This document shows, piece after piece, positions 10,594 to 61,178 of a DNA stretch of 64,000 nt (position 1 is its first letter; every line of letters starts with the position of its first letter). Origin of the DNA: a virus. Made by a program: the position numbers and the translations under genes. The DNA is taken from the IMG/VR virus record IMGVR_UViG_3300024339_000015; one strand, 5' to 3'. The notes beneath the pieces were generated by a model, which worked only from the letters and a program-made list of their open reading frames with translations, was not told the origin of the DNA and did not search any database.

Positions 10594-10625
10594 CTATTTA
10601 CGTTACTTGACTAAAGCAGAAAAAG

Positions 10626-15064: not shown

Positions 15065-15487
15065 ATGTCAATACAAAATTCCAAAGATACACCCAGCCAT
15101 TATTTTTCTAAGTCTAAAGCAATTTTTATGGAAATATCTAGTATGAACACTAAACATATAGAAAATGCTGTTAAAAAGTTAACCTACACTGACTCAGACG
15201 GCGACAGTGTAATGTACGACAAACGACTTGAAAACATGAAAAAAGAGCTTGATAAAAGATACAAACAGAAGCGAATAAATAAGTTGCGAGAAGGGATGGT
15301 CGGGTATTGGATAGGAAGTGATAATAAATTGTCATTTGTCCAAGACTTAGCTGATGAACATGTGCTAGCTATATTAAATAAATACCTGGAAGCTAGAACA
15401 TTTACAACGAACAGTGACAGAAGCATGCCTAATAAATATTATGAAATTAAAATTGAAACTTTAAGAAGAGGGCTAATTGACAGATGA
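15065..15487 (+). CDS. Hypothetical protein
   Basis: ORF track; ends at an ATGA overlap. Confidence 0.7.
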   Translation: MSIQNSKDTPSHYFSKSKAIFMEISSMNTKHIENAVKKLTYTDSDGDSVMYDKRLENMKKELDKRYKQKRINKLREGMVGYWIGSDNKLSFVQDLADEHVLAILNKYLEARTFTTNSDRSMPNKYYEIKIETLRRGLIDR

Positions 15488-16019: not shown

Positions 16020-16133
16020 AAAGAAATAATAAAGGACCACATGGACTATACCGGATACTTTGAAGACCATGGTATTGCTTTAAGAGAGAATATGTGGGAA
16101 CATAACGATAAAAAAATAAAAGTAGTAGTATGA
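15930..16133 (+). CDS. Hypothetical protein
   Basis: ORF track; ATGA overlaps at both ends. Confidence 0.65.
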   Translation: MKINALEMGTKKSSQVIPVINDLIKEIEDLKEIIKDHMDYTGYFEDHGIALRENMWEHNDKKIKVVV

Positions 16134-17032
16134 GCCAATTCACAAGATATCAACACATAGAAAAGTATCAAACTATGGAAGTAGAAGGAATAGAGCTTGG
16201 TAAAGTCTACGTCTTTCCAAAAATAGATGGGACCAACGCATCTGTTTGGTTAGATGACGATGACATCACCATCAAAGCTGGCTCTCGTAATAGAGAATTA
16301 ACCTTTGATAATGATAATGCTGGGTTTTTCAAAGCAATTAGAAGTGACTATGATAATATTCATCACTATTTATACGAGCATCCAACACACATATTATACG
16401 GCGAATGGTTAGTCAAACACACATTACAAACATATGAAGAAAATGCTTGGCGCAAGTTTTATGTATTTGATGTTATGGTAAATGACATGTACGTAAATTA
16501 CGATACTTACAAAGAATGGTTGGAAGAGTTTAGTATAGACTACATTCCTGCTATTTGTTCTATTGCAAACGGGGCTTCAGATAAATTCCACTACCAACTT
16601 GAAAACTCTAACTACTTAGTTAAGGACGGAGAAGGTTTGGGTGAAGGCGTGGTACTAAAGAATTATGACTTTGTAAATAAGTTTGGACGAACAACATGGG
16701 CTAAAATCGTTAGATCAGACTTTAAAGCAAGTTTCCATAAAATAATGGGGCACCCTGAAATGAAGGGCAAAGACACCACAGAAATAAAGATAGCTGAACA
16801 GTATATTACGTCACATTTAGTTGAAAAAGAGTTTGCTAAAATAGTGAATAAAAACGACGGGTGGTCTAGTAAATTCATACCTCAGCTACTCGAAACAGTT
16901 TTTTATAGTTTGATTACTGAAGAAATGAATGATATATTAAAGAAGTATAAGAATCCAACTATTAATTTTGGAACTCTTAGAAATTTTGTTATACACCAAA
17001 TCAAACTAAAAAAACATGAGATATTTAGTTAA
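16130..17032 (+). CDS. RNA ligase (Rnl2-like nucleotidyltransferase)
   Basis: Motif I PKIDGTN, LYGEW, FYVFDV, EGVVLKN, AKIV. Confidence 0.85.
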   Translation: MSQFTRYQHIEKYQTMEVEGIELGKVYVFPKIDGTNASVWLDDDDITIKAGSRNRELTFDNDNAGFFKAIRSDYDNIHHYLYEHPTHILYGEWLVKHTLQTYEENAWRKFYVFDVMVNDMYVNYDTYKEWLEEFSIDYIPAICSIANGASDKFHYQLENSNYLVKDGEGLGEGVVLKNYDFVNKFGRTTWAKIVRSDFKASFHKIMGHPEMKGKDTTEIKIAEQYITSHLVEKEFAKIVNKNDGWSSKFIPQLLETVFYSLITEEMNDILKKYKNPTINFGTLRNFVIHQIKLKKHEIFS

Positions 17033-18265: not shown

Positions 18266-18486
18266 AAGATGGTATAAGAGCTGAGAATAAACAAAGCGCA
18301 ATACTTAAGTATAATAGTGGTCATGGGGCTATACTTTGTTCTACGTGTAATATTATTGTTAAAGAAGGGCACTACACTTTTACAGAGGCGGAACAAGATG
18401 CTTTTTTTAATAATGGTAACTTAGATCCATACTATTGCGACAAATGCAAACAAAAAATAATGGAGAATACTAATGAAACAATTTAA
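18262..18486 (+). CDS. Hypothetical zinc-ribbon protein
   Basis: CSTC...CDKC. Confidence 0.7.
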   Translation: MKDGIRAENKQSAILKYNSGHGAILCSTCNIIVKEGHYTFTEAEQDAFFNNGNLDPYYCDKCKQKIMENTNETI

Positions 18487-18886
18487 TAATTTATTTAAAA
18501 TATTAGAAAATACAGGTGAACACTTTCATAGGACTATATGTGGTCTGATAGGCGGGTACTGCGAAGACCGCTTTACTTTACAAGAAATAAAACCTGTTAT
18601 TGATCATATTGTGGAAAAGGATTTAATTACATGGAGTATCGAAAATGAAGATAATGATGGAGAAGATACGATTGATTATTTTATTGCTATAGATAATGAA
18701 AATGGAAATGAATTTTATTCATTTTTAGATATTTACCATGAACTGTATTCCGTACCTACTGCGGTCCTCGGCATGGCTAATCCTTGTGAGAATTATTTCA
18801 TTTTGGAAAATTTTGATAATAAAGAAGTTATAGAGCTGTTTCTTAGAAAAGTAGGAATAGAACTTGGAGAAGGAGAAGAAGAATGA
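18473..18886 (+). CDS. Hypothetical acidic protein
   Basis: ORF track; TGA stop in an ATGA overlap. Confidence 0.7.
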   Translation: MKQFNNLFKILENTGEHFHRTICGLIGGYCEDRFTLQEIKPVIDHIVEKDLITWSIENEDNDGEDTIDYFIAIDNENGNEFYSFLDIYHELYSVPTAVLGMANPCENYFILENFDNKEVIELFLRKVGIELGEGEEE

Positions 18887-19028
18887 AAAGAACGTGGACA
18901 GGAGAACATAAAACATTTAAGTCTAAAAAAGAAAAGGACACACAACTTGAGTGGCTATTATTTAAAACAGCCTTAGGATTTTTAATAGCCACGGCGTATA
19001 TGTATTACATAATATTAGGAGGTCCGTC

Positions 19029-20711: not shown

Positions 20712-21103
20712 ATATGGAAAGCAAAGAAAATAAAATAGGTCATTTTGATTGTGCTTGTCACGATCGAGACCATATGATTAAAGTGTCCCATTTTAATTGG
20801 GGACCTGGTGATGAACATAATATACAAGAAATAGATTTTAATTTTGTTATACATCATACTTGTTGGGAAGCTAATAAAAATGGATATACTACTGAAAGTA
20901 GAATTCAAGAAAAGGCTAGAGATTTTCTTAACTTCTTTAGGCGCATTTGGTGGAGAATACGTAAATCGGCAGAAATACTTACTACTGGCAGTATAAAATT
21001 AGAAGGAAATTGGTCCGCTACAGAAGAAAGCTTTGCAGGTCTTAGAAAATGGATGAATAAAACCGCTAAGATAATTAAGCAAGAAAATGGGAGAGTATTG
21101 TAA
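20702..21103 (+). CDS. Hypothetical protein
   Basis: ORF track. Confidence 0.65.
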   Translation: MGLNMESKENKIGHFDCACHDRDHMIKVSHFNWGPGDEHNIQEIDFNFVIHHTCWEANKNGYTTESRIQEKARDFLNFFRRIWWRIRKSAEILTTGSIKLEGNWSATEESFAGLRKWMNKTAKIIKQENGRVL

Positions 21104-21903
21104 TGAGCGATGAAAAACAAACATGCTGTCAACCAGAAGAATCCTGTAAAGATGATATAAACGATGTGATGAGTTTAGAGGATAAAAAGAAAATGGAGCT
21201 TGACCTGTACTTATCTACATGCCAAGCAGCGGACGTAATACCAGACGACTTTGTTGTAAAAGCAGTAAAAGAATACTTACCGAGAAGCTATGATGGCCAC
21301 ACACACCACCATGCTAAACGAGAGTTAGAAATGGGCGAGTGGTTAAAAAAAGGCGAAGACACGCTGTATAACGGCATGATCGGAGAAGCAGTATTAGAAT
21401 TAATATCTGTTTTTGCAGGCCAAGGTCACTCCGGTATGAGTGCCGGAGTCGTAACAAGTTTATTTACAAAACTGTCAAAGCATGAGCCATTAGGCCCCCT
21501 TACGGGCGAAGACAACGAGTGGGTTTCTGATGTAGACAAATACAGTAAGGAGTTTGCAGAAGAAAATGGATATGGATACCAAAACAAACGTGAGTCTGCA
21601 GTATTTAAAAACAGTAAAGATGGTACGGCATACTATCTATACGCAATAGTGTTTAGAGAAGAGGATGGATCGACTTTTACAGGCAACAGTATTGAGATGC
21701 CTGACAGCAGCATGCTTACAAGCAGGCAGTACATAAAAGGATTTCCTTTTACACCTAAAACATTTTACATTGATGTTGTGTCGAAACGATACAAAGATAG
21801 AGATGAAAAACTTGAAGATATAAACGGGGACTGGTGGAAACACTGGATTAAGGACGAAAGCCAGTTGAAGGAAGTTTGGGAATACTACGATAAATATAAA
21901 TAA
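21103..21903 (+). CDS. Phage hypothetical protein (QGHSGMSA motif)
   Basis: ORF track; TAATG coupling. Confidence 0.75.
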   Translation: MSDEKQTCCQPEESCKDDINDVMSLEDKKKMELDLYLSTCQAADVIPDDFVVKAVKEYLPRSYDGHTHHHAKRELEMGEWLKKGEDTLYNGMIGEAVLELISVFAGQGHSGMSAGVVTSLFTKLSKHEPLGPLTGEDNEWVSDVDKYSKEFAEENGYGYQNKRESAVFKNSKDGTAYYLYAIVFREEDGSTFTGNSIEMPDSSMLTSRQYIKGFPFTPKTFYIDVVSKRYKDRDEKLEDINGDWWKHWIKDESQLKEVWEYYDKYK

Positions 21904-22293: not shown

Positions 22294-22941
22294 ATGAAGC
22301 TAGTATGTATATCTGATAACCATAATAACTACAATGATTTTATTGTCCCAAACGGAGATGTCCTTATACATGCAGGTGACTTTTCTTATCAAGGCAAGCC
22401 CGGAGAGATAGTAGATTTTATGGACTGGTTAAACAGACAGCCACATACACATAAACTATGGATCCCAGGGAACCATGAGTTGTCCTTAGAAGATTTTCCA
22501 TACAATATTGAGACGATTGAAAAAGAAACTAGTTCAGTTTGTTTGCATAACAAAGAATACACAATAGATGGGGCCAGATTTTTCGGAGCAGCGTTTACAC
22601 CAGAATTTAATCACTGGGCGTACAATCTTACAGATAGACAATCAAAAGTATTTTGGGAAAATGCACCTAGTACGGACGTACTCGTATCCCATGGACCACC
22701 TAGAGATGTATTGGATACATCTGGGTATCACGGTAGGCCATTAGGATGTAAGTATCATTTTGAGTACTTAAAACGAACCAAACCGAAGATTAATGTATTC
22801 GGCCACATACATGGATCAGGGGGCTTAGAAGAAAAACTTCAATGGGACAACGGAAGTACAACGCTTTGTGCAAATGTATCAGTATTAAACGAAAAGTATA
22901 AGTTCGAAAATGAACCTACTGTCCTTGACGTAAATATTTAA
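22294..22941 (+). CDS. Calcineurin-like metallophosphoesterase
   Basis: ISDNH, IHAGDF, IPGNHE, SHGPP, VFGHIH. Confidence 0.93.
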   Translation: MKLVCISDNHNNYNDFIVPNGDVLIHAGDFSYQGKPGEIVDFMDWLNRQPHTHKLWIPGNHELSLEDFPYNIETIEKETSSVCLHNKEYTIDGARFFGAAFTPEFNHWAYNLTDRQSKVFWENAPSTDVLVSHGPPRDVLDTSGYHGRPLGCKYHFEYLKRTKPKINVFGHIHGSGGLEEKLQWDNGSTTLCANVSVLNEKYKFENEPTVLDVNI

Positions 22942-26034: not shown

Positions 26035-26601
26035 ATGAATTACTTCACAAGTGACCTTCATTTTAATCACGCTAAAATATGTGACTATACAAAGCGTCCA
26101 TGGAAAGAAGATGTGGAAAAAATGAATAGTACACTTATAAATAATATTAATTCTAGGGTAAAACCTAGCGACACTTTATACCACGTTGGTGATTTTGCTT
26201 TTAAAGGCGGGTGGCAAGGTGGGAAAGAAGCTGCCCAACATTTTGAGGATAGAATTAATTGCAAAGTTATTCATGTACTAGGAAATCATGACCGTAATAA
26301 CCACATAAAAAACAGTATTAGATATGCTGAAATGTGGTTTGGCAATAAACGATGGTGCTTACAACATCACCCACCAGAGCCTAGACAGTTGAGACGGTTT
26401 CCGTACGCAGGAGATACTACCACGGTTTATTTAGTAGGCCATGTCCATGAAGCATGGAAACATAAATGGGTAGAAGATTTTCTTGTAATTAATGTAGGTA
26501 CAGATGTTTGGAATTACAGGCCTATAAACACAAGTGAAATAGTAGTATATGCAGATAGATGTATTAAACGATTAACCAAAGGAATAGATAATGCCAAATA
26601 A
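26035..26601 (+). CDS. Phage calcineurin-like phosphoesterase
   Basis: FTSDLHFNH, YHVGDF, LGNHD, LVGHVH, INVGTD. Confidence 0.92.
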   Translation: MNYFTSDLHFNHAKICDYTKRPWKEDVEKMNSTLINNINSRVKPSDTLYHVGDFAFKGGWQGGKEAAQHFEDRINCKVIHVLGNHDRNNHIKNSIRYAEMWFGNKRWCLQHHPPEPRQLRRFPYAGDTTTVYLVGHVHEAWKHKWVEDFLVINVGTDVWNYRPINTSEIVVYADRCIKRLTKGIDNAK

Positions 26602-27848: not shown

Positions 27849-28047
27849 ATTAAGAACTATAGACAAAGGACAGTTTTATATACAACTATTCACAGCTATT
27901 TTATTTATGTATAAATCTATAGAGGTATCGCCCATAAGCCCTATAAATGTTTTAATCGGCTTATTGTTACTAACAGGATGGTCTTTAGGGGCCGTTAGAC
28001 ATAGAACTGTTAGAAGGAGATTAAGAAATAATGAAAACAAAAACTAA
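27838..28047 (+). CDS. Small membrane protein
   Basis: Two hydrophobic segments; likely ATG 27838. Confidence 0.55.
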   Translation: MRHKLRTIDKGQFYIQLFTAILFMYKSIEVSPISPINVLIGLLLLTGWSLGAVRHRTVRRRLRNNENKN

Positions 28048-29173
28048 ATTCGGACCCATATATGCATTAGCTTCGAATGGTAAGATAAAAATATGGCAAG
28101 CAATTATCCGCCCAACTGATCGCGGTGCTTATATAACGTATAAATATGGCTACGATGATGGACAGCAACAAACACAAATGAGAGAAGTATTTGAAGGTAA
28201 AAATCTCGGTAAAAAGAATGAGACTACTGCATTTGAGCAAGCTTGTAAGGACGCTGAAAGTAAATACAATAAAAAATGTGATGCAGGCTATCAAGCGGAT
28301 AAGGATGGATTAACCGTCCCAATTTTACCAATGTTAGCTCACTCTTATAGTAAGCGAGGTCATAACATAAATTGGCCCTGCTATATTCAACCAAAGATAG
28401 ACGGAATTCGCTGTACTTTCACAATGAAAAACGATGTTATTACAATGTTTACACGGAAAGGTAAAGAGTTTACCCCATTACCCCATTTAGATGGTGCTAT
28501 CCGATTGTTATATGAAAATGTACAGTCTAACCACTTCTCTACTGAAGATTTATATTTTGATGGAGAAATGTATTCTGATACTTTAACCTTTCAAGAATTA
28601 GCAGGAACGCTTCGCAGACATAAAAATACAGATGAAACTCTTAACCAAATATATTTAGTTGTATTTGATATATTCTATTTAAGTAAAGATAGGGCGTATG
28701 ATTTTGGGTTTAGAACGGCTTTATTAGACCAATTTTTTGAGTCGTATACAAGTAGTTATATTAAGTTAATTGAGACTGAGCAGGTGACCGATGAGGCAAT
28801 GGTTCACGAGCAACACCAGGAGTATATTGAAGCTGGTTACGAGGGCATAATGCTGCGTAACGCATTAGGTGCCTACAAACTAAACCAGCGTTCTGCTGAT
28901 CTTCAGAAACTTAAAATGTTTCAAGACGAAGAATTTGAAATAGTTGGTTTTAAAGAAGGAGAGGGCGTTGAAGAAGGTTGTGTAGTATGGCAATGTACTA
29001 CAGGGGCATATACTTTCTGGGTTAGGCCAAGAGGTACTCAGGAGATACGAAAAGAATTGTTTAAACACGGATATGACTATATTGGAAAACAACTTACAGT
29101 ACGTTATCAAGAATTAACTGATGACGGGAAACCTAGATTTCCCGTGGGAATTTCAATACGAGACTATGAATAA
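28031..29173 (+). CDS. lig: ATP-dependent DNA ligase
   Basis: PMLA, QPKIDGIR, YFDGEMY, VFDI, EGIMLR, LQKLK, RYQELT..GKPRFP. Confidence 0.95.
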   Translation: MKTKTKFGPIYALASNGKIKIWQAIIRPTDRGAYITYKYGYDDGQQQTQMREVFEGKNLGKKNETTAFEQACKDAESKYNKKCDAGYQADKDGLTVPILPMLAHSYSKRGHNINWPCYIQPKIDGIRCTFTMKNDVITMFTRKGKEFTPLPHLDGAIRLLYENVQSNHFSTEDLYFDGEMYSDTLTFQELAGTLRRHKNTDETLNQIYLVVFDIFYLSKDRAYDFGFRTALLDQFFESYTSSYIKLIETEQVTDEAMVHEQHQEYIEAGYEGIMLRNALGAYKLNQRSADLQKLKMFQDEEFEIVGFKEGEGVEEGCVVWQCTTGAYTFWVRPRGTQEIRKELFKHGYDYIGKQLTVRYQELTDDGKPRFPVGISIRDYE

Positions 29174-29663: not shown

Positions 29664-30201
29664 TTAGATAGGCGGTGAACAAAAAACCCGTAGTGATCTA
29701 ACGACACTACAATCAAACCTTACTATATGGAGGAATTACACATGACAAATGCATTATACACACAACACACGGGTCTATTCGACCTATTTTTTAGAGACTA
29801 TATTAGAGACGAAGTTTATTCGCCACTACCTGATAAAGTTCATTACCCCACAGATATATACGAAGATGCCATTGGGCTATCAATTGACATAGTTGCAATT
29901 GGAGCGCAGAAGGATGATGTCAGTATATTAACAGAAGACGGTAATACTCTAAAAGTAACTTACAAAAATACTAGTAAACCTATGGATGAAAATGTGAAGC
30001 ATTGGCATTCTAGGAATATAACTAGAAAGGATTTTGAATTTGGATGGACTATTCCTACGAAATTCAATCTTACAAAAATAAGCGCTGAGTATGAAGGGGG
30101 AGTCATTAAATTTCGAATACCTTTTTCAGAGGCGTCTAAACCTAAAGAAATAAAATTAGGATAAATGACAGTATAAAATAACTAAGTTTACGCCTATCTA
30201 A
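29664..30201. repeat. Inverted repeat bracketing hsp20 (29664-29680 / 30186-30201)
   Basis: TTAGATAGGCGGTGAAC vs GTTTACGCCTATCTAA. Confidence 0.85.
29727..30164 (+). CDS. Hsp20/alpha-crystallin small heat-shock protein
   Basis: YPTDIYED, RNIT.KDFEFGW, AEYEGGVI, SKPKEI. Confidence 0.9.
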   Translation: MEELHMTNALYTQHTGLFDLFFRDYIRDEVYSPLPDKVHYPTDIYEDAIGLSIDIVAIGAQKDDVSILTEDGNTLKVTYKNTSKPMDENVKHWHSRNITRKDFEFGWTIPTKFNLTKISAEYEGGVIKFRIPFSEASKPKEIKLG

Positions 30202-32929: not shown

Positions 32930-33092
32930 CATATTAGTAATATGTTTAAGTTAACATATTGCTATACTTACAGTTATACAAAATTATAAGGTATAAGAAT
33001 TATATATGTATCATTCTATTACATAATGTACAATTATGGTACAATAGTATAGTAACGATACACTTAATAAAAAAGATAAGGAAACAAAAGAA

Positions 33093-33668
33093 ATGAACTT
33101 AGTACCATTTATTATAGAAAGTACAGCAAAAGGCGAAAGAGCCTACGATATATATTCCAGGCTTTTAAAAGAGGGCATTATATTTATTGGGACACCGATA
33201 AATGATATGGTAGCAAACAGTATTATTGCACAAATTCTTCTTCTAGAGGCAGAAGAAGATGTAGACGTAATTCATATGTATATAAACTCTCCAGGTGGAA
33301 ACATTACATCAGGGTTAGCTATATATGACACAATGCAGAGTATTAACACCCCTATAGCTACTACATGCGTAGGACAAGCTTCTAGTATGGGTGCGTTGTT
33401 ACTAGCAGGTGGGGCAAAAGGACAACGATCGGCGTTACCTAACTCACGGATCATGATTCATCAACCTCATGGTGGAATTATGGGGCAAGAATCTGACATA
33501 CAAATACAGGCCGATGAAATGAAGCGAATGAGGTCGTCTTTAAATGCTATCTTATCGAAACATACGAAAAGGACATTGAAAAAGATAGAAAAAGATACGG
33601 ATAGAGACTATTTTATGTCTTCTGATGAGGCAAGAAAATATGGAATTATAGATAAAGTATTAAATTAA
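33093..33668 (+). CDS. clpP: ATP-dependent Clp protease proteolytic subunit
   Basis: [42 protein letters not shown]. Confidence 0.97.
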
Positions 33669-34341: not shown

Positions 34342-34677
34342 ATGCAAGCCTCACATTTGAAAACAGGAAATAACATGGAAAAAAATAAAAGTACGTGGGC
34401 AGTAATAGTCTACGTGGGCAATTACATGAGGAAAGAAAAAGGGTCTTCTTGTGACCTAATTGGGGTCTATCCGACTAAAGAAGCAGCTATGTTTATTAGT
34501 CGTAAGGCTAAATTTAATATGAAGTTAGCCTTCTACCCCAAAGTAATCCCATCCAGTGCTCCCGTAACTACGACTAAAGTCGAGCCTTATTTAGCGTACA
34601 TTAACGAAAAAGAGGAAAAAAGAAATGGCAACAGCAAAAGCATTACCGATGATAAACGGTACAGCAAACGGGGCTGA
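34342..34677 (+). CDS. Hypothetical protein
   Basis: ORF track; start may be the later ATG. Confidence 0.6.
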   Translation: MQASHLKTGNNMEKNKSTWAVIVYVGNYMRKEKGSSCDLIGVYPTKEAAMFISRKAKFNMKLAFYPKVIPSSAPVTTTKVEPYLAYINEKEEKRNGNSKSITDDKRYSKRG

Positions 34678-35002
34678 TTTTAAGATTACAGGGAGCGGGC
34701 GAATGAGCACCGGACTTGTTGAGAAATCCGTCCAAATCTCCCAAGCTATGGGGACTAAGTTTGAAGTAGAAGTTAGAGGAGACTATATCTGGATTATGGC
34801 TAAGCGCCATAAAATGAGTTTAGATCATCTCTTAAGCTTGGTTAAAAAGAATGCGAAGGTGCGTAACATAAGATGGAAAGGAAATAAATACAGAATTTCT
34901 AAGAAGTCTGAAGGCATATGCTGGCCATCGCGAAGCGGAGTTTGGGGATCATCTGGATCTGTGAAAAGTCATAGACCATGGTATCTTACCCCAGGTAAGT
35001 AA
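34625..35002 (+). CDS. Hypothetical basic protein
   Basis: ORF track, GAGG RBS. Confidence 0.65.
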   Translation: MATAKALPMINGTANGADFKITGSGRMSTGLVEKSVQISQAMGTKFEVEVRGDYIWIMAKRHKMSLDHLLSLVKKNAKVRNIRWKGNKYRISKKSEGICWPSRSGVWGSSGSVKSHRPWYLTPGK

Positions 35003-35010
35003 TAAAATTA

Positions 35011-35046
35011 AGAAGGGAGGGCTTAACGGCTCTCCCCTTCTTTTTT
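35011..35046 (+). terminator. Intrinsic terminator
   Basis: AGAAGGGAGGGC/GGCTCTCCCCTTCT plus T-run. Confidence 0.75.
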
Positions 35047-35281: not shown

Positions 35282-35706
35282 GGGCCCTAACTAGTATCGA
35301 TTGGCAGAACTTACTATATGAAGCGCAGTCATGAAGAAAACATGTAAAAAATCAACCGTCAATTTAATTGGCAATTATAGTTACGCAGCTGCAGCTTAAT
35401 TGACTGTAGCCATCGTCCTTTGACTCCGATAAAGGAAAAGCGATGACATTATCGGGAAGAACCTACTACTTGTAGTGAAAAAAGGTTAGAAGTAATACGC
35501 AATAAACCAGTAACCTTGAGAAACACGGTGAAAGCCCAGCTGTTAGATTGTGTAAAGTATCGTTGGTTACCATCGAGCTACGACGATTAAATTTGAGAAA
35601 AGAACAGACATGGTAGACTTTGTCAGGGGGAAAGAAACTGACTAAACTGTAAATGACTTTTATAGAAGGCTGAGCAAGACGCGGGGGCAGTACCCGTGGG
35701 GTCCAC
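35282..35706 (+). ncRNA. ssrA: tmRNA, tag (A)GNYSYAAAA
   Basis: Acceptor GGGCCCT/GGGGTCC with G3:U70 and A discriminator; T-arm GCGGG-GGCAGTA-CCCGT; tag frame 35370-35399 ending GCA GCT GCA GCT TAA; ACTAAACTGTA near the 3' end. Confidence 0.92.
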
Positions 35707-35734
35707 AAAATTAATATAAAACCAATTAGGCGTA

Positions 35735-36313
35735 ATGATAAAGATAAAAAGTTCTTTAAAAAAGGATGTAGTGTTTGATTGTATAGATTATAATATAAAC
35801 ATCGACAGTAGAACGATGTATTATAGTGATGAAATAGATCTATACTCTCCAGCATGGATAAAAAGTAGGATAGAAGCTATATACGCCTTAACAGGAGATA
35901 ACAAGTCTCCCGTAACATTGGAGATAACTTCTTATGGTGGGGACGTGTACGGCATGTTTGGTGCTATAGATGTCATAAAAAATGCACCCACAAAAGTAAA
36001 TACAGTGGGTAGGGGGGCAATAATGTCTGCAGCCACCTGGATACTAGCATCAGGGACGGGAGATAGGATATTAGCTCCACATACCACAGTAATGATACAT
36101 GAGATATCATCACTTATAAATGGAACTAGTAAAGACATAATAGCAGAAGCATCTCATTTAAAAAGCTTACAAACAAAGATGTATAATACGTTTGAAGCGT
36201 ATTCAAATAAATCAAGCACATACTGGAAAAAGATGTCGAAAGTAAATTTTTATCTTACACCTGAGAAATGCTTAGATTTAGGAATCATTAATAAAATAGA
36301 AGGAAGTAAATAA
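35735..36313 (+). CDS. clpP: Second, divergent ClpP-family protease
   Basis: ITSYGGDV, IMSAA (catalytic Ser), VMIHE (His), FYLTPEKCLDLGII. Confidence 0.88.
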   Translation: MIKIKSSLKKDVVFDCIDYNINIDSRTMYYSDEIDLYSPAWIKSRIEAIYALTGDNKSPVTLEITSYGGDVYGMFGAIDVIKNAPTKVNTVGRGAIMSAATWILASGTGDRILAPHTTVMIHEISSLINGTSKDIIAEASHLKSLQTKMYNTFEAYSNKSSTYWKKMSKVNFYLTPEKCLDLGIINKIEGSK

Positions 36314-36314
36314 A

Positions 36315-36539
36315 ATGGAAACAGAAACATTTGTAGATTTTAAAGGCGATAAAGGGCATTTACTCCCTGCGCAAGAGCAGTTTTTACTGGATTTTTCAAG
36401 GCATATGTCTAAGTACGTAGAAGATAATCCGCAAGGAAGTGCAGGAGAGCTGATGTTTATGTTAGAAGAGATTTTAATGAAGACTCAGATAGCCCAAGAA
36501 ATGCTAGACGTAACCGGGGAGATAAGAACTAATGGATAG
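36315..36539 (+). CDS. Hypothetical protein
   Basis: ORF track. Confidence 0.65.
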   Translation: METETFVDFKGDKGHLLPAQEQFLLDFSRHMSKYVEDNPQGSAGELMFMLEEILMKTQIAQEMLDVTGEIRTNG

Positions 36540-37020
36540 GGTCAGAAGAACAAAAGTAGAAATTGAAGCTGGTATGACTTTTGAGCAAAAGAAGAAGGGA
36601 TACACCCTCGATGACTTAGATGTGCCAGAAACTTTAAAGAAAAAAAAGATAGAAATAACAACAAAAAATGGCGATAAAACTTGGGAAACAGTAGATCATG
36701 AGTATAAGACTATTTATAAATATAAGGATCACGAAAGGGTGATAGAGAAAGAAGTACCTGTTGTAAAAGAAGTTAGAATTTTAAATGGGACAAAGAAAAC
36801 CGAAAAAACTGTAGATGAAATTTTAAGTGAAGAGCTAGGAAAGTGTGTATGGGAATGGAAAACAGTGAAAATGGACAATAAGTTTAGAGTTGGAATGCTG
36901 GACGAATTGGGGAAAAAGGGATGGAAGTTTGCTTTCATTACGGAGTGGTCTTTAATAGACCCAAGTAAAAAAAATAAACCACATACTATAAGTTTCCAGA
37001 GACCAATCTTCAAGTCATGA
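36532..37020 (+). CDS. Hypothetical protein
   Basis: ORF track; TGA stop in an ATGA overlap. Confidence 0.7.
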   Translation: MDRVRRTKVEIEAGMTFEQKKKGYTLDDLDVPETLKKKKIEITTKNGDKTWETVDHEYKTIYKYKDHERVIEKEVPVVKEVRILNGTKKTEKTVDEILSEELGKCVWEWKTVKMDNKFRVGMLDELGKKGWKFAFITEWSLIDPSKKNKPHTISFQRPIFKS

Positions 37021-37259
37021 AGAGAGTAACTGACGAAGATACTCAAAAATTACAGGAGATTGAAGAGTTACTAAAGTTTACTAAAGAAAGATTAGAGGGT
37101 AAAAGTCCTACAGAACAAGCTAAACAAATACTTTTGTTGCAAGTTGGTAGGACTTTTTCTCATACTTTAGAGAGCCATGGGATAGAAGTTAGTGATGTTT
37201 TAATGAACGACTTTAAGGAAGCTTACACAAAAGACATACTAAATTTCTCAATAAAATAA
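37017..37259 (+). CDS. Hypothetical protein
   Basis: ORF track. Confidence 0.65.
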   Translation: MKRVTDEDTQKLQEIEELLKFTKERLEGKSPTEQAKQILLLQVGRTFSHTLESHGIEVSDVLMNDFKEAYTKDILNFSIK

Positions 37260-39529: not shown

Positions 39530-40126
39530 TTATAAGTAGATTTTTATTAAATTTCTAAGGGCATCAAATCTTGTTGCTTTATGTCTAAATGCTCCTACTC
39601 CAGACTCAATTGGATATAAAAATTCCCTGACTTTTCTAGATATAGGAATATCGTATCCTTTCATCATTCTGTTTTGAGCAGCAAATTCTTCTATCGCATC
39701 TCTCTTGCCTCTAGTAAATTTATCTTTCAGTGTTTTTGGTCTAAAAGTTTTTTGAGGGTTCTTTTGGTTTCTTATAGCGTGGGTAAGCTCATGCTTTTTT
39801 ATCATAGGATACTCCGCCCCCAACTTTCTTTTATTTAAAAAAACTAGTTGTTTTCCGCTTTTCATGCCTACAGTTTTTGCTACTGGGAATGAGCCTAAGT
39901 CTTGGTATAAACTTTCCCCCATTATTTTGCCTACAGCCTTATCCAGGTCATTTCAGTTATTTATTTCTTTTATTGACAAGGCAGTTTTAGTTAATTTTAA
40001 GTTTCCCAACCCAGTTCTTCTTAGTGCCCTAATAAAAGGTGGTTTTTTTCCAGCAGCCAAAGATTTGTCCATTAACTTTTTTAATTCCGGAACTTTTTTT
40101 GTACTAAGCGGTCTTTGGAAACTCAT
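39530..40126 (-). CDS. Late protein with HExxH motif, 198 aa via TGA 39953-39955
   Basis: ATG coupled to the RNAP stop (TAATG); in frame with 39530..39922; KKHELTHAIR. Confidence 0.7.
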
Positions 40127-43100
40127 TAATAATACTCCCCTTCATTTCTAGCAAATTCTTCCCCATAAATATATGCAGGTATTGGGTCTTTACCGTGTAT
40201 GTCCGTCACCTGACCAGCAGAAGCCCCCTCTACTAAAGCAGCTTTTATCCTATTAGTAGTAAATTTTGTTAACCAATCTTCACTGTCTGAGTTAAGAGTA
40301 TCTACGGATTTAAAATATGGCCTATATCCTATTAAGTCTAATCCAGTCATTTCCCTTTCTTTATTTAGTCTTTCAATTCTTGTAATGGACGTTTTGTCTC
40401 CCCTTAAAAACCCGCTACCTGTCGGAGCTTCTGTAATATATGCATTATCAGATATACCTCTTACTATAGTTTCAAATGTTTTCTTAAAAAATTTACTATC
40501 AAATACAGGACCATTTAGCTCGTCAACAATATATTGCTGTGCCTCTAAGTGAGATTTTAAGTCACTCAACTCTTGCGGTTTTATAGTTCCATCAGATACC
40601 TTATCTCCCACATTGACTAAGTCACCTATTTTTACTACTGGGATTCTTCCGGAAGGAACTGTAAACGTTTTGTCGTTCTGAGTTCCATACCCTTCTATTC
40701 TAAGGTCATAACCTCCTATAGGATTCTTTTCTATCCACTTTACCTTTCCCTTTACATCGCTAAGAGTAGCTTTACCGAGCAGCTTCTCAGGAACTTTTAA
40801 CAATTGTTCTAATCTAGGAAATTTATCTGTCAAGCCTCCACCCGCAGACGCAGATCCACCACTATGAAAAGTTTTCATAACTAATTGTGTCGAGCGTTCG
40901 GTCAAAGCTTGGGACTCAAGAATACCAATAGAAACACCTACTGAAGGTAGACTTCCGTTAGGCATTAACCCGTAACAAAAACTGCAGATACCTTCTACAG
41001 ACTCACAAGTCAAGGGGCTACGAACTTTTATTGACCTTATTCCTGCAGTCTTTAGCTTCAAAATCATGTTACTATTGATCAAGTCATTTCTCCTTGCGAC
41101 ACCAGACACGGACTGTCCTAGAACTCTATCCATGGCGTCCTTGCTATCCACCGTCATTTCTATATCTCTTAATGTCTTGCAATCTTCTTCAGTAATAAGT
41201 AAATTTCTATTTACGCTAAGCAAAGTTTTGTTTAAAGCCCCAGAATCCTGAGTATTTACTGCTCTGTCAATAGTTCCCTTTCTTACCGCATACATTGAAT
41301 TAAAGTATGATGGAGTGTCTATCCCCTCACCGTAAGATTTTAAAACGGGTATAGGCAACGCTTTACCAGAAACATCCTGCAAAACCCCTGGCATCGATAA
41401 AACTTGTCTTATAGAGTCTTTCTTACTAAAAGATCCTGACTCATACATTCTGTATAAATTATTTGAGGAAGATAGGCTTTTATCTTGTGCTTTTTCTGTA
41501 TCAGTAGTAAGCTTTAATAAAGCCTCTATTCTTTTATCTCCTGACATCGCCTGTATCTTAGGAAGTCTGTCTTTATACAGTCTATCTCTATAATCCCTAT
41601 TTATAGCAAAATCTGTAATAGATACAGTGTTACCGATTGTATGCCCATACTGGACAGATAAATCCTTCCAGGCATTTATAATAACAGAAAATTTATCACG
41701 GTAGTTCTTTCCTACCCTAGAAAGCACGTCACCAACTGTATTAGCATCCATTACGCGGGAGTAATCCTTTAATGGCTCTGGCAAATCTTTATTTATATAG
41801 TACTGCCCAAGAGTCATATTTTGTCTGCCTAGCTTAAAAACATCTGTCATCTCAAGTCTTGCACTCTTAGCATCTGATATAGTCTTAAAAGATTTACCGG
41901 TATTTTTACCTAGTAAGCTAGCTTGGTACAGCCCTAACTGGTAATCCTGTCCCAGATCGGGTACAACAGAAAGATCACCGTGCTTAAAAATATTTTTACT
42001 TGGTAACATACGATTAGCTTCTTCTATTGCATCGTTGCCAATTGGTATGTTTACTGACATAGTGTCCCCGTCAAAGTCAGCATTAAACCCTTTCACAACT
42101 ATAGGGTTTAATTTTATATCACTTCCATCAGTAAGGACGGTATTAAATGCTTGAATACTATGTTTGTGTAAAGAAGGCGCCCTATTAATAACTACTGGTC
42201 TAGATTTTACTACATTATTTAAAGAATTTTTAGCTAAAATATCTTCGTCATTGTATGCTTTTAAAGCTGCTGACGCACTCATACCTTGTTGCTTTAAATC
42301 CTTTATAATAAAAGGTTGAAATATCTTGTAAGCCATTTTAGTGGGAACGCCTACCTGGTCTATCCCCAAGGACGGCTCAACAGTGATGGTAGATCTTCCT
42401 GATAAATCCTGTCTAGAGTCCCACATAGTACCGTGAACAAACCCACGTTTTAAACTTTGTCCAGATAAATCTTTTAAAATACCCTTATACTTTTTATTCC
42501 CATAAGTTATTGGGTCTATAAACCCTTGTAGAGCTTTTACAGAACTATATAAATTATTTGAGTACTTAATTTCATCTTCTTTAGTTAGTACGTTAGCTGC
42601 TTTAGCTTTTCTATAACCCTGGTTGATAAGCCCCACATCCCTATAATGGTGATTTAAATCATTTACCATTAAATCTCCAGAGGGTAATGGATAAATTGGT
42701 CTAAAAATTGGCGGTAAAACTGGTAGGTATTGCATAGTATACGCATCATAAGCACTTAACTTCAACTTTTTTAAATTCTGTAAAAACCTAACCTTTTTAT
42801 TCAATTTATTGACATCTGATGGAGGAGCTTTTTTTAACATACGTTTTGATGAAGTGAGCTCTTTACCCACATCTAAGCTTTTAAGTGCTGAAAGTATAGA
42901 ATTAAAACCGCCAGCTTTTTTAAAGCTAGGATCTAATCTCTCACTACCATCCATAACAGAACTAAATTTATTTTCTGTTATACCCAGTATTTTTTGAATA
43001 GAATCTTGATACATAGGATTAGGTATTCTATCAACTAACTTAATGTGGGACCAATTCTTCCCAGAAGACCCGCCTGTAACGTCGTTGTCAAATAAACCTC

Positions 43101-46100
43101 CTTTCCTGCTAGCAAGGTTTTTACCTATCAATAACGCACCAGGATCTTTTAATTCCCCATTACTTAATTTTTTTACATCCTTGTCTGTGAGAGGAAAGAT
43201 TTTTATTGTGTCGCCAACTTTCTCTGTATTTACGCCAGCTGCTTTTAATCTATTTAACATCTTATCAAATACAAAGTTTCTAGACGGTTTAGGGGGCATC
43301 AAACCCAATTGTAATGCTCTCCAGTACTCTTCATTTTCTCTGCCTTTTATGTTTGCAATTTCATACAAATTATTTTTTGCACCATGGGCCAAATATGCGT
43401 AAGTCTCCATATGACCAGCTTTCTGTGCACCTTTACCAACAGGCCTGTTGTCTACATCATAGCTTCCTATTCCGTGACCAGCGGATTTTTTCTTGACGAT
43501 GTGCCTAAGTTTCATAAAATATTTTTCACCGACAAATATGGGGTTTTTAAAAGCTTTCCCAGTCTTACCATCAGTTAAAATTTCATTAGGCTCAACGCCT
43601 GCTTTCTTTATATCAGCCAGCACCCTTTTAGAAGAGTCATCATTCGGGTCATCGAAGTTATCTACTATATAAGTGTTTCCAGTTTTCTTTGCAATTTTTC
43701 CAGCCCCAGCTTCTAAGAGTTGTCCAATATTCATACGTCCAGGGACACCGTGTGGGTTCAACATTATGTCTACAGAAGTACCATCGGGCCTATGTGGTGC
43801 TTCACTGTCAGGAATTATTTTAGTAACAATATTTTTATTACCATATCTCCCGCTCAGTTTGTCAGCTAGTTTAAATGGGTGTACAGATTTTATGTAAATA
43901 TCTAAGTTTCTACCTATTTTTTTAATATCTATTACTGTACCAGACTCATCCTCATCTCACTCTACAACAACTTTGGTGTACATACTAAATATAGCCTTAT
44001 TTAATTTTTTTAATGCTCTTTCTTGATCATCCAAAACTTTTTCAACTAAAAAAGCTGCCACTACCTCACCAGGAAAAAATTCTTTTCCTTTTTTTGCTAT
44101 ACCATCTGACCCTAACTTAGCTAGGTTATCTGGACTAATCTCATCTGGATACCACGCCGAAAACTTTTTCTTATCAAACGAACTAATCTTAGGATTAAAG
44201 TAAACATTTTTTTTATGGATCATTGTGTGTGAAAGTTTTTCAGCAGCACTTTCCGTTATCACTGCTCCGTCTTCGAAATTGTATCCTTTCCAAGGCATGT
44301 ATGCCACAGTCAAATTTTTACCTATTGATAAAGCTCCGTTACTAGAATAATTGCTGTCAGCTAGTGAGTCCCCCTCTTTTACTTTGTCCCCTACTTTAAC
44401 TAATACATCGGAGTGAAGAAATCCATCTTGATTTAATGGAAAATTATTGTACAGTCCCTTACTGAATGACTCCCCGTTAGACTTTTTTATAGTCACGTAA
44501 TCATCTGTAATTTTTTCTATAATACCTCGCTCCCCTTTCAGTATGACCGGATTTAAAAAGTTTCCTACTAACTGTTCGTACGTTTTATCTTCATCCCGTT
44601 TTACCTGGACATAAGGAGCTTCTTTTTGATCTAATGCAAGCGCCTGTGTAATCATGCGACCTCCCATCGACCCCCTATTACCTTGTACAGTTTCTAAAAA
44701 AGGAACCATATTTGACTCAAAGGAAAACATAGATTTAGGCGATCTCAAGTAAAAATCGACTTCTGAAGATGAGATCTTCTTAGTTTTACCTTCATGCATA
44801 ACAATAACTCTAGGCCCTCGTGACTTGGGAAGACCGTTAACAGTTATATATTGATCTGGAAATCCTACCACCTTAGAAAAAAACTGAGTAGGATTTAAAT
44901 AGTGGATTTTTCCTTTCTTATCAATTACCGGGCTAGTTATGTCATTTCCTACCTTATGGACTTCTGAAGTTAAGCCGACTGACACCCCAATTTTCCCCGA
45001 TTCTGGGGTAGCGAGGGAGTCTAAAAAACCGAAGTGTGAAGGTTGGACAGACCTAGCCTCCATTGTAATTGCATGGCTACTACCTATCCCACCCGTGCCC
45101 ATTGGTGTCGTTTTTCTCCAATCAGCTAGTATACTTGCAGGGTTAGTTTGTGGAGGAGTTGCAGATAAGTCGCCCACAGTAAAGAACTCTTTTATTGGCT
45201 TAGAGAAAGCACTAGCACTAACAATATCCCTAACGTTATCTTTCAATGACATGGATCGGATCATTTTTCTCTGCAAAGATTCTTTATGTTTATCAAAATG
45301 TGCTGACAATAAATCATCTATACCATATATATTTTTAAAGATTAAACTATCTCTTTTGTCGGGTATATCGATCCCTTTATTTATATTCAGTAACTTCACC
45401 GATGAAGCTAATAAGGTTTTTCCATTTACAGTTTCGTATCCTGTACCTAGAGTCACCTTAGTTGTTTCTTTACTAACTTTTGTATAGTTATTGAAGTACT
45501 CATTTAAGCCATTAATAACCTCCTTATAATCTTTCGGATCTTTTTTGTAGAAGTTTTTGTAAATTGAGGTCATTTCTGAAACCTCAGTATTTAGTGCCCC
45601 TTTTTTATTTAGTAATAAAAGGTCAGATCCCCAAGCTTTTTCCATATCTCTATCAGATACGCCGAGTAAGTTTAGTAATGTCCAGAGTCTATATTTTCTA
45701 TTTTTTAATATTACAACAAAAATTTGTTTTATAGGATCCAGCTGCATTTTAAAATTATAGCCACGCTCAAGATTAAATTCATTCTCAAGCTCACCATTAT
45801 TCTTTACCCTAGCATATATACCAGACTTTCTTCTAAGTTGGTTGGTTGTTTGATACTCATTACCGTCTATTATTGCTGTGAACCTGTTTGTTAGCTTTGG
45901 TATGTGTCCTATTTTTGAATTTTTTTTCTGACTAATAATCTTACCAGAAGTAGAGTCAATAATCTTTATATCAGCATATATAGGAATTTGCCATGTCTTC
46001 CTGTTTAATTTTACTTTCTTTTGCTCAGGGAAATCCATATCAGAGAGAGTATCTTTTACTACGACATTCTCTATAATAAGTTTTCTACCATTAGATTCTA

Positions 46101-46188
46101 CGGGGAAGGCCGCCTCTATAGAGTTAGATATGGAAGAAAAGATGTTTTTATTCTGGAGTCGGTGGTCTAAGTAATTAGCGTTTTTCAT
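40126..46188 (-). CDS. rpoBC: Fused beta-beta' multisubunit RNA polymerase, 2020 aa with in-frame TGA 43957-43959
   Basis: Beta motifs TPES, YNFEDG, DKLSGRYGNK, NPHGVPGRMN; beta' motifs DLSGRS, NRAPSLH, NADFDGD; the two track ORFs share one frame, and the gap between them encodes DKLSGRYGNK. Confidence 0.93.
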
Positions 46189-46892: not shown

Positions 46893-48026
46893 ATGTTAAA
46901 AAAATTATTAAAAACAGAGAGTACCTTAAACTCTTATTTTATAGAGAGGGAAGACGAAGTCAGAGGACTAACCTTAGGCATATTATCGGGAAACAATGTT
47001 CTATTTTTGGGCCCTCCCGGAGTATCTAAGTCACTTCTTGTAAATAGTTGGGCGTCGTTAATTAAGGACACTAACTATTTTGGATGGCTAGTGAACAGAT
47101 TCTCAACACCAGAAGAGCTTTTTGGCCCTTACTCTTTAAAAGGTTTGGAAAACGATGAGTACAAAAGAATTACGGATGGAAAACTTCCGGACTCTCATGT
47201 AGGTTTTATTGATGAAGTCTTCAAGTGTAATTCAGGTGTTTTAAATGCATTACTAAGCGTGTTAAATGAGAGAACCTTCTACAATAACGGGAAGGCAGTG
47301 AAGACCCCAATATTAACAGTGGTAGGCGCATCAAATGAATTACCAGAAGAATCTGATAACTTAGAAGCTATGTACGATAGATTTCAGTTAAAATATATGG
47401 TAAGCCGCATTCAGGAGCCATCTAATTTTTCTAAATTAATGAAATTAAAAAATGGTTTTGAAGGAAATACGACTTTAAGTTTATCCGACATTCATGCCGC
47501 AAAAGCTCAAGCAATGGAAGTTCAGATATCCGATGAAATGGTTGACCTTCTAACTGAGCTGAGAGAAAAGTTAAAGGAAGAAAATATCGACGTTACTGAT
47601 AGGACATATATGTTTTCTAAAAAATTACTAAAAGCAGAAGCGTATATGAACGGTAAATCAGAAGTAACTGAAGAAGACTTTGAAATTTTACAAAACGCAT
47701 TTTGGTCTGAACCAGGTCAGAAAAAAACTGTATACAGCACTATCTTAAACACCGTAAACCCAGCAAAGAGTAAAGTCTTAGATATTTATTATGACGCTAC
47801 GGACTTATTTGAGGATTTAATGGCAAGTAAAAAAGATAACATAGAATCTACAGAGAAGAGTATGGAAGCTGTAATTAAGTTAAAAGATGCTAAAAAATCT
47901 TTACGGGGACATTACTTAGATGCTAAGAAAAATGGACAAGACTACAAAATTGTACAGAAATACGAAAAGAAAGTAGACATCTATTTAAATAAAGTATACG
48001 CAGAATGTTTGGAGGTTTCATTTTAA
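46893..48026 (+). CDS. ravA: MoxR-family AAA+ ATPase (RavA-like)
   Basis: GPPGVSKS, STPEELFGP, FIDEVFK, GASNELP, AMYDRF. Confidence 0.9.
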   Translation: MLKKLLKTESTLNSYFIEREDEVRGLTLGILSGNNVLFLGPPGVSKSLLVNSWASLIKDTNYFGWLVNRFSTPEELFGPYSLKGLENDEYKRITDGKLPDSHVGFIDEVFKCNSGVLNALLSVLNERTFYNNGKAVKTPILTVVGASNELPEESDNLEAMYDRFQLKYMVSRIQEPSNFSKLMKLKNGFEGNTTLSLSDIHAAKAQAMEVQISDEMVDLLTELREKLKEENIDVTDRTYMFSKKLLKAEAYMNGKSEVTEEDFEILQNAFWSEPGQKKTVYSTILNTVNPAKSKVLDIYYDATDLFEDLMASKKDNIESTEKSMEAVIKLKDAKKSLRGHYLDAKKNGQDYKIVQKYEKKVDIYLNKVYAECLEVSF

Positions 48027-51630: not shown

Positions 51631-52353
51631 GTGAGACTCAGAGCATTTACTCAGAATAGCAAGACAATTCTTTCTGTAGATTTCTCTAGAACTACGTGCC
51701 CACAAGTATGTGAGTATTGTTACGTAGGAAACATGGAAAGAATATATCCAAGCTATAAAGAAAAAATAAAGAAAAATGCAAACTGGGCAACTGGAAACTA
51801 TGAAAACTTCTCGTCGCAATTAAATGACGAATACACATCAACAAGGAAAAGTAAAGCAAAAAAACTAAGACGGGTGAGTAAATTACCCGTTAGAATATAC
51901 GGCTCTGGAGATTTTATCCCAGAACATCTAATGTTTATGGAAAGATTAGACTTTAAGTTTTATGTAATTAGCAAGTCACTAACATCCAACTTTATGCATA
52001 AATACATAGATGAATTATTGAAAATGGATAATCTGACAAATTTAGTGTTGAGTTTCGACGCACAAAATTTAGATAATTATAATGGTATAAGTAAATTATA
52101 TGGTGACGATCGGATTTCATTCGCTTTTACTGGCATGGCAGACGAGTTTAAAGAAGTCAGACTTGACAAACAGTTCGATATATTTTTTAATATATCTAAT
52201 AAAAAAATCGAGAAAGAAAAATCAAAACTGTATAAGGAACAATGCCCATGTGATAGTGGAGCAATGGCCCATAACGAAAGTTGCTCTTTCTGCAACAAGT
52301 GTTGGAAGTCATCATTAACAAAAGACAAGGATTGGAATAAGGAACATATATGA
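51631..52353 (+). CDS. Gp88-like / radical-SAM-like Fe-S protein
   Basis: CPQVCEYC, VRIYGSGDF, C-terminal CPC...CSFCNKC. Confidence 0.65.
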   Translation: MRLRAFTQNSKTILSVDFSRTTCPQVCEYCYVGNMERIYPSYKEKIKKNANWATGNYENFSSQLNDEYTSTRKSKAKKLRRVSKLPVRIYGSGDFIPEHLMFMERLDFKFYVISKSLTSNFMHKYIDELLKMDNLTNLVLSFDAQNLDNYNGISKLYGDDRISFAFTGMADEFKEVRLDKQFDIFFNISNKKIEKEKSKLYKEQCPCDSGAMAHNESCSFCNKCWKSSLTKDKDWNKEHI

Positions 52354-52571
52354 GTTTACTAGGAAAAGAGTTAAGAACAGAACCCATCATTGATGAAATA
52401 GAAGTATTATATGATGAGTTTAAAAAGTTGTACAACGAAGTGCTGGTTAAAGGCGGTATAAAAAGATCTATCAAACTCAGAAGCACAGCAAGACAGCTTC
52501 AAATGGCGTTTAAATCATTTAGACCTGCCTCTGTGAGCGATACACGGGAGCACTTAGGAAGAATTAAGTAA
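52350..52571 (+). CDS. Small basic helical protein, weakly Hc1-like
   Basis: ORF track; ATGA overlap. Confidence 0.6.
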   Translation: MSLLGKELRTEPIIDEIEVLYDEFKKLYNEVLVKGGIKRSIKLRSTARQLQMAFKSFRPASVSDTREHLGRIK

Positions 52572-54731: not shown

Positions 54732-54936
54732 TAGGAACTACCTCAAGCTTATCTAGGTCATCACTATCATTTATCACGTCAGGATCATAGTCTAGCTCTT
54801 CTCACCTATCACCCTCCCCATTATAATAGTTAGAAACTTTTTCTAATCCTTTATCATCTGTACATAAAATTTTAGTTATTTTACCTGTGGAAGTATTTTT
54901 AAAAACTTTATACGTTCCATATTTTGTCATAGACAT
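54721..54936 (-). CDS. Small late protein, 71 aa via TGA 54802-54804
   Basis: TAATG-coupled to the portal gene; ...LEKVSNYYNGEGDR*EELDY... Confidence 0.7.
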
Positions 54937-60898: not shown

Positions 60899-60911
60899 GT
60901 TTTAATTTAGG

Positions 60912-61178
60912 TTAGTTTTGGGCAGGCCTGGTAGGAATTGAACCCACGCACTCCGTTTTGGACGCGGAGGGGGACAGTTTTGAAGACTGCTCGTCACCCA
61001 GCTGACGCCTCAGGCCTATTTTATTTTTTATATAGTCCTGTGACGCATTATTAGCATCATCAATATTATTGTATGCATTATCTAGAATTTTGGTTTGTTG
61101 TAAACAATGGTCGTCTATTTGTACAGAAAAATTGTCTGTACCATAAATAGCGTCTATATGTATTTCGAGTCTCTTCAT
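60912..61178 (-). CDS. ORF whose 3' third is the UCA tRNA
   Basis: TAATG-coupled start; no stop before the tRNA. Confidence 0.45.
   Translation of the reverse strand: MKRLEIHIDAIYGTDNFSVQIDDHCLQQTKILDNAYNNIDDANNASQDYIKNKIGLRRQLGDEQSSKLSPSASKTECVGSIPTRPAQN
60919..61018 (-). tRNA. tRNA with UCA anticodon (reads UGA), long variable arm, Sec-like/suppressor
   Basis: AGGCCTG/CAGGCCT acceptor (8 bp with U:G, then C-CCA), D-stem CGTCA/TGACG, GCAGT-CTTCAAA-ACTGT, CTCCG/CGGAG extra arm, GTGGG-TTCAATT-CCTAC. Confidence 0.9.

Follow-up and report, generated by a model that had tools for sequence, protein, structure and literature searches.

A divergent tmRNA gene beside a ClpP paralogue: a candidate proteostasis island in a TGA-recoded marine phage

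Why would a phage that reads TGA as tryptophan carry a tmRNA gene directly ahead of a second gene for ClpP? The 64,000-nucleotide stretch of viral DNA analyzed here (IMG/VR record IMGVR_UViG_3300024339_000015; referred to as the window) contains such a pair, and the original prediction tied the pair to the genetic code: once UGA is reassigned, early and host mRNAs ending in UGA would read through or stall, and a module of tmRNA and ClpP could clear them. We lean, if only slightly, towards another reading, in which the pair belongs to a proteostasis island of the phage, located in the plus-strand (probably early) block of a marine jumbo phage of ~200 kb; such an island would predate the TGA-to-Trp recoding and would be independent of it. 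The phage is present in marine metagenomes of at least 15 studies.

The tmRNA gene and its relatives

35282..35705, plus strand: one-piece tmRNA gene (ssrA), 424 nt from the 5' G to the discriminator A; acceptor stem and T-arm, full-length homology, independent profile match
35370..35399, plus strand: tag reading frame, GGC AAT TAT AGT TAC GCA GCT GCA GCT TAA, encoding GNYSYAAAA and a stop
35475..35550, plus strand: insertion of ~72 nt in the pseudoknot region; from alignments with the tmRNAs of relatives, with extra hairpins predicted
35681..35697, plus strand: T-arm with deviant loop, GCGGG-GGCAGUA-CCCGU; 5-bp stem
10521-10594: tRNA-Ala (ARAGORN, Rfam)

The gene escapes the usual detectors. 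On the window, ARAGORN reported only the tRNA-Ala and a tRNA(UCA) at 60919-61018 (minus strand), and Rfam at the gathering score reported the tRNA-Ala only, neither program returning the tmRNA at 35282. With permissive filters, Rfam gave only a match of 10.9 bits to RF00023 (gathering 47) and a match of the T-arm to alpha_tmRNA. Both programs miss the RNA because its T-loop, GGCAGUA, deviates and because the insertion of ~72 nt is present.

Related loci were reached via homologues of the downstream ClpP paralogue, termed ClpP2 herein. Syntenic tmRNA homologues in L007, L009, and L011 pass Rfam at 107 to 121 bits, and L008 has, at the same place, a tmRNA that the detectors miss. The window RNA aligns end to end with the Rfam-validated tmRNAs of these relatives, save for the ~72-nt insertion. 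A profile built from 10 Rfam-validated tmRNAs of relatives, with the window and L008 RNAs left out, gave a single match in the window, at 35290-35708 (model positions 8-377, E value of 1.9e-9). The TLD base pairs of the family tmRNAs were counted straight on the sequences and not from the MAFFT alignment; in 12 of 12, the acceptor stem is fully paired (7/7), with G3:U70 and a discriminator A, and pairs 4 to 7 vary on both strands across the set, that is, by compensatory changes. The tags of the family are in register with that of the window, with lengths that differ by whole codons and a C-terminal Ala-Ala that is kept (GNSYQYAAAA in L009 and L011, as read by ARAGORN, GNVNYAAAA in L008, and GNSYAMAA in L007). 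Judged by comparison of sequences, the window RNA is a genuine tmRNA, and the predicted molecule of about 425 nt with tag GNYSYAAAA is borne out (424 nt to the discriminator, tag at 35370-35399, homology at an E value of 1.9e-9).

The acceptor stem of the window RNA, GGGCCCU/GGGGUCC (3' strand at 35698-35704), has all seven pairs, including the G3:U70 of alanine identity, and the discriminator at 35705 is an A; CCA is not encoded at the 3' end, where the sequence continues past the discriminator with ACAA. The T-loop reads GGCAGUA, compared with UUCGAnU in relatives, and lies outside the consensus of the GUUCRAnnC type; the T-arm stem-loop is identical to Rfam alpha_tmRNA positions 93-107 at 14 of 15 sites, and a D-loop-like GUAUCGA is found as well. 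With its preceding alanine, the tag reads (A)GNYSYAAAA; its resume codon is GGC, a 7-bp hairpin holds its UAA stop in the loop, and its C-terminal Ala-Ala is a ClpXP-type degron. The MFE fold retains the acceptor stem, the T-arm, and the tag hairpin, with an MFE z-score of -1.57, a value that is uninformative where an RNA is pseudoknotted, and RNAalifold (five sequences) returned a long-range helix that is partly implausible. Because the T-loop departs from the consensus, function as a tmRNA is not assured.

Contigs from the RNA libraries (metatranscriptomes) of four studies span the locus and show no differing letter across the tmRNA gene, so the deviant T-loop is not an assembly error. The cover by these contigs is modest and roughly even, which speaks for presence and not for transcription, contaminating DNA being a possible source; the contigs end at different places (35666, 35706, and 35731), and the end at 35706 is a weak hint.

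Phage one-piece tmRNAs are known from Bxz1-type mycobacteriophages, Bacillus phage G, and huge phages (PMC4131195, PMC7162821, PMC12484599). The window RNA resembles these in its tRNA-like domain, tag frame, and pseudoknot region, and in belonging to a large phage with tRNAs. It differs from them in that it escapes ARAGORN and Rfam, has the GGCAGUA T-loop and the 72-nt insertion, and adjoins a ClpP paralogue. A blastn search of the window tmRNA against GenBank phages gave no match, nor did a search of IMG/VR for the exact T-arm/acceptor pattern. Surveys of phage tmRNAs based on ARAGORN or Rfam undercount, since the RNAs of both the window and L008 were missed.

The ClpP paralogue and its linkage to the tmRNA

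35735..36313, plus strand: ClpP2, ClpP paralogue with Ser98-His122-Asn171 (Pfam, alignment, AF2 model, tree)
33093..33668, plus strand: ClpP1, canonical host-like ClpP (Pfam, 264 bits; NCBIfam NF001368, 296 bits, cut-off 249)
32990..32998, plus strand: GGTATAAGA, promoter-like motif before the ClpP1 gene; the window has 11 exact copies
35015..35036, plus strand: strong terminator-like hairpin, 9 bp plus T-run; closes the unit upstream of the tmRNA

ClpP2 starts 29 nt past the tmRNA discriminator and scores 84 bits with Pfam CLP_protease (cut-off 20.2), in agreement with the divergent ClpP that had been placed some 30 nt downstream. The canonical ClpP that had been placed at 33093 is likewise recovered, by Pfam and above the NF001368 cut-off; this ClpP1 is ~70% identical to the ClpP of marine bacteria and is lacking in most relatives. 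ClpP2 and ClpP1 share 23% identity, and the ClpP2 clade stands apart from canonical ClpPs with support of 100/99. Ser98 and His122 are invariant in the clade, and the site of the triad Asp is Asn171 in 14 of the 14 members first aligned, giving Ser-His-Asn in place of Ser-His-Asp; in the wider relatives G007/G006, G012, and G019, the same site is D, T, or E. The N-terminus is variable, without the canonical axial-loop motif, and is modeled as a helix. In the family alignment, E, N, and R of ClpP2 align with Y62, F82, and M92 (E. coli ClpP numbering) of the hydrophobic pocket in which the IGF/L loops of ClpX and ClpA dock. The AF2 single-chain model (pLDDT of 90.5) has the full ClpP fold, with a handle helix at 132-156, and TM scores of 0.80 to 0.84 against cellular ClpPs; the best PDB matches are LmClpP1 (4jcq) and Mtb ClpP2. 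A 79-kb sister contig encodes a 95%-identical ClpP2 (P0001) and a 91%-identical ClpP1 (P0033), and a search of GTDB genomes for ClpP2 patterns found no relative.

Listeria ClpP1 has the triad Ser98/His123/Asn172, binds no AAA+ partner, and shows activity only when its ring is paired with one of Listeria ClpP2 (PMC9257651). The phage ClpP2 is like ClpP1 of Listeria monocytogenes (and like Mycobacterium ClpP1P2) in being a second isoform with Ser-His-Asn and a poor or missing AAA+ surface, with a canonical ClpP alongside. It differs in that it is only ~22 to 26% identical to Listeria ClpP1, that the third triad residue varies in its clade (N, D, T, E), and that most phage relatives have no ClpP1, so that the partner there would be the host ClpP in an assembly that is predicted.

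The tmRNA lies directly 5' of ClpP2 in the window, L007, L008, L009, and L011, and this adjacency occurs in two well-supported ClpP2 subclades (the window with P0001, and L007, L008, and L009). It is not universal: the two genes are 5.5 kb apart in G001, 10 kb in G002, and ~19 to 20 kb in G006 and G012, and a mini-tmRNA lies 2.5 kb from ClpP2 in G007; G008, G011, and G016 have a tmRNA without a ClpP. In most cases both genes share a strand and the tmRNA comes first. Within 6 kb of the ClpP homologues of four cultured phages there is no tmRNA, and a literature search for a ClpP paralogue beside a phage tmRNA found no description.

Between the tmRNA and ClpP2 of the window, no terminator-like site was found. 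A sigma-70 promoter scan did no better than in shuffled sequence. The 9-mer GGTATAAGA has 11 exact copies in the window where ~0.5 would be expected (positions 843, 6578, 10664, 11827, 12909, 14503, 14766, 18271, 32990, 34299, and 46212), each of them lying on the plus strand and preceding a gene of that strand; it probably serves as a phage promoter for one temporal class. It also stands 24 to 37 nt before the tmRNA in L007, L008, and L009; because it precedes ClpP1 in the window and the tmRNA in these relatives, a common temporal class is suggested.

ClpP2 might alternatively be a head-maturation (prohead) protease, in which case the tmRNA would be an incidental neighbor, tRNA-like genes landing anywhere. 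The best NCBIfam and PHROG names of ClpP2 are indeed "head maturation protease," and such a role would fit a protein without the unfoldase-docking pocket or canonical N-terminal loops, in a family without a Clp ATPase. These labels, however, do not discriminate: NCBIfam NF045542 gives 71 bits, below its cut-off of 120 and about equal to the 70.6 bits of the ClpP model, and the canonical ClpP1 matches the same PHROG with a higher score. ClpP2 also has no C-terminal extension; ~20 kb separate it from the portal-like gene, which is on the other strand, and the block to which it belongs is without sense TGA. The complete relatives G008, G011, and G016 share the portal and have no ClpP2. In an unrelated phage, G003, a ClpP2-like gene (with Asn) occurs together with a ClpP1-like gene and one for a Clp ATPase of 835 amino acids. 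On this evidence, a prohead protease is unlikely; ClpP2 is an accessory gene, since its occurrence is patchy among phages that have the same portal.

Partners and possible mechanism

29727..30164, plus strand: Hsp20/alpha-crystallin small heat-shock protein (Pfam PF00011, 32 bits, cut-off 20.8)

The tRNA-Ala at 10521, the Hsp20, and the AAA+ ATPase that the original prediction had listed in addition are all present, the last as two genes (8507-9997 and 46893-48026). A role as Clp unfoldase was weighed for the AAA+ protein of 8507-9997 and dismissed: this protein is a classic AAA of the Cdc48/PAN type, shows no Clp features, and lies 25 kb away.

No match to SmpB (PF01668) was found in 16 relatives, of which 10 are 90% complete or more, and the family's genomes encode no ATPase of the ClpX/ClpA type (AAA_2 Clp), so that SmpB, EF-Tu, AlaRS, and unfoldases of the host would be needed. 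The phage would thus supply the rescue RNA and protease subunits and not the recognition factors. Phage G carries genes for ClpP and ClpX as well as a tmRNA and a suppressor tRNA (PMC12484599); there, the tmRNA and the ClpP and ClpX genes are far apart, whereas the family of the window phage is without SmpB and ClpX.

In the proteostasis reading, host AlaRS would charge the tmRNA with alanine through G3:U70, and host SmpB and EF-Tu would bring it to ribosomes that have stalled at the end of an mRNA that is broken or has no stop codon; there, it would append the tag (A)GNYSYAAAA to the stalled chains. Host ClpX or ClpA would then unfold the tagged chains, and a Clp core with phage subunits would cut them. 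ClpP2 would most likely form one ring of a mixed tetradecamer, with phage ClpP1 as its partner in the window and host ClpP taking that place where a relative has no ClpP1. More recycling of ribosomes and amino acids during infection would be the likely gain. Such a coupling of ribosome rescue to proteolysis is plausible, the tmRNA and ClpP2 being adjacent in two ClpP2 subclades and 2.5 to 20 kb apart in five further relatives.

The phage RNA could also serve mainly to manipulate the trans-translation of the host, by capturing SmpB or by replacing the host tag, with tagging for destruction secondary and ClpP2 either unrelated or a modulator of host ClpP. G007 keeps only an 82-nt tRNA-like domain without a tag frame, 2.5 kb from ClpP2 and in a tRNA cluster (G007:C1:38635-38716, minus strand, the same as L103:1501-1582, minus strand; Rfam, 51 bits). 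A TLD-only RNA is known in mycobacteriophage DS6A, such molecules inhibit tmRNA (PMC4131195), and no phage SmpB was found in the relatives searched. In the window and most relatives, however, the tag frame has stayed open, with variation in whole codons and AA at its end, which indicates selection on the tag peptide and makes it distinctly unlikely that manipulation of the host is the main role.

The unrelated phage G003 (IMGVR_UViG_3300000931_000001; 265 kb, 26% GC; loci at 60580-61152, 138277-138783, and 257359-257883) encodes a canonical ClpP, a member of the ClpP2 clade with Asn, and the 835-amino-acid Clp ATPase, with no detectable tmRNA. The window also has a homologue of Tad3, the inhibitor of type I Thoeris defense (21103-21903, plus strand; Pfam PF25185, 108 bits), and plus-strand genes for a kinase-like P-loop protein, an RNA ligase, two metallophosphatases, and an ATP-dependent DNA ligase (11911-12369, 16130-17032, 22294-22941, 26035-26601, and 28031-29173), which may be an RNA/tRNA repair set fitting the theme of sustained translation.

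Genetic code of the family and meaning of the island

60919..61018, minus strand: suppressor tRNA(UCA) (ARAGORN); in the lysis cassette, not part of the tmRNA-ClpP2 module

That UGA is reassigned, as the original prediction held, is upheld by the TGA codons of the window, which align to Trp in relatives, and by the tRNA(UCA) at 60919, of which G001, G006, and G008 have a syntenic copy. Sense TGA in the window is a matter of minus-strand genes, including those for the fused RNA polymerase and for lysis. On the plus strand, TGA occurs only 2 to 30 codons ahead of a TAA or TAG; eight plus-strand genes have such tandem stops (for example, those at 7161-7445, 15065-16160, 18473-18976, 34342-34683, 36532-37029, and 51631-52362), which would keep read-through in check once the code has switched. 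With a TAA or TAG following so soon, early genes of the phage itself would gain no more than short tails if read through. The TGA-to-Trp recoded phages of Borges et al. (bioRxiv 10.1101/2021.08.26.457843) are alike in having TGA as Trp in one block of genes that includes lysis genes and in having a tRNA(UCA); the difference here is that tmRNA and ClpP2 occur whatever the genetic code.

The portal-like protein of the window (54936-56801) was used as a query and found 43 IMG/VR relatives, many of them 140 to 210 kb long. G001, G006, and G008 have nine in-frame TGA codons each in 6.0 to 7.8 thousand aligned residues, together with the tRNA(UCA), whereas G002, G007, G011, G012, G016, and G019 have no in-frame stops in 4.8 to 6.1 thousand aligned residues and no tRNA(UCA). 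Set out by code, the genomes read as follows (completeness in parentheses).

Recoded, window: tmRNA; ClpP1 and ClpP2
Recoded, G001 (35%): tmRNA; ClpP2
Recoded, G006 (100%): tmRNA; divergent ClpP
Recoded, G008 (97%): tmRNA; no ClpP
Recoded, L007 and L008 (fragments): tmRNA; ClpP2
Standard code, G012 (100%): tmRNA; ClpP2
Standard code, G002 (16%): tmRNA; ClpP2
Standard code, G011, G016, and G017 (each 100%) and G014 (94%): tmRNA; no ClpP
Standard code, G007 (89%): 82-nt tag-less mini-tmRNA; ClpP2
Standard code, G019 (40%): tmRNA not found; ClpP2
Standard code, G015 and G018 (each 100%): no tmRNA; no ClpP

If the tmRNA and ClpP served to clear the read-through or stalled products that arise once a suppressor tRNA makes UGA a Trp codon, they should follow the code, and one half of this table agrees: the window, G001, G006, G008, L007, and L008 are all recoded and all have a tmRNA. 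Suppressor tRNAs have been linked to higher demand for SsrA (Ueda et al. 2002, as cited in PMC3985003). The tag stops that were read are UAA or UAG in the recoded window, L007/G001, L008, and G008, and UGA in the standard-code G016 and G017. The contrast in tag stops (UGA in 0 of 4 recoded and 2 of 6 standard-code tags read) is, however, not significant, and the other half of the table goes against such a link: the tmRNA is also found in the standard-code G011, G012, G014, G016, G017, and G002, and ClpP2 in the standard-code G012, G002, G007, and G019, while the recoded G008 has no ClpP. At the level of presence or absence, the comparison of ssrA plus clpP in recoded and standard-code relatives thus revealed no association, an outcome that the original prediction had itself named as counting against it. 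The module, moreover, belongs to the plus-strand block and the suppressor tRNA to the lysis cassette on the minus strand, and the TGA-ending plus-strand genes are already backed up by their second stops. Since standard-code relatives carry both the tmRNA and ClpP2, the tie to UGA reassignment is unsupported, and the explanation of the module by recoding is very unlikely. Among papers found with both "tmRNA" and "recoding," none links a phage tmRNA or ClpP to stop codon recoding, and the preprint of Borges et al. does not mention tmRNA. The distribution among these genomes makes the tmRNA ancestral to the phage family, with recoding having arisen in a lineage that already had it; the attractive story that recoding creates a need for a phage tmRNA is thereby removed.

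Some further observations concern the same genomes. tRNAs with the anticodon CUA, of the amber suppressor type, occur in G008 (105393-105469), G011 (4202-4275), and G019 (34629-34706), so that the UCA and the CUA type are found together in G008; the conserved genes compared among relatives showed no in-frame TAG. The RNA polymerase of the window is a single beta-beta' fusion of 2,020 amino acids (40126-46188, minus strand) with one sense TGA; in relatives, the fusion gene has 0 to 11 TGA codons and is interrupted or split in some (G012, G026, and G031). An actin-like protein of the Volactin family is encoded beside the lysis and portal block (57654-58649, minus strand; Pfam PF25216, 220 bits).

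The preferred reading, a proteostasis island, can be extended to a co-transcribed, phage-controlled tag-and-degrade path, in which ribosomes that stall on degraded host mRNA would have their products marked by the tag ..YAAAA and a mixed host and phage Clp core with a Ser-His-Asn ClpP2 ring would digest them with altered rate or specificity. We regard this extension as tentative and fairly unlikely. If it were true, debris of the host proteome would become amino acids for the phage, and the tag-less tRNA-like domain of some relatives would be a second strategy, one that blocks host trans-translation. The repeated link of a tmRNA to a clade of ClpPs with Ser-His-Asn and no docking pocket makes these phages a testable case of viral parts in host quality control.
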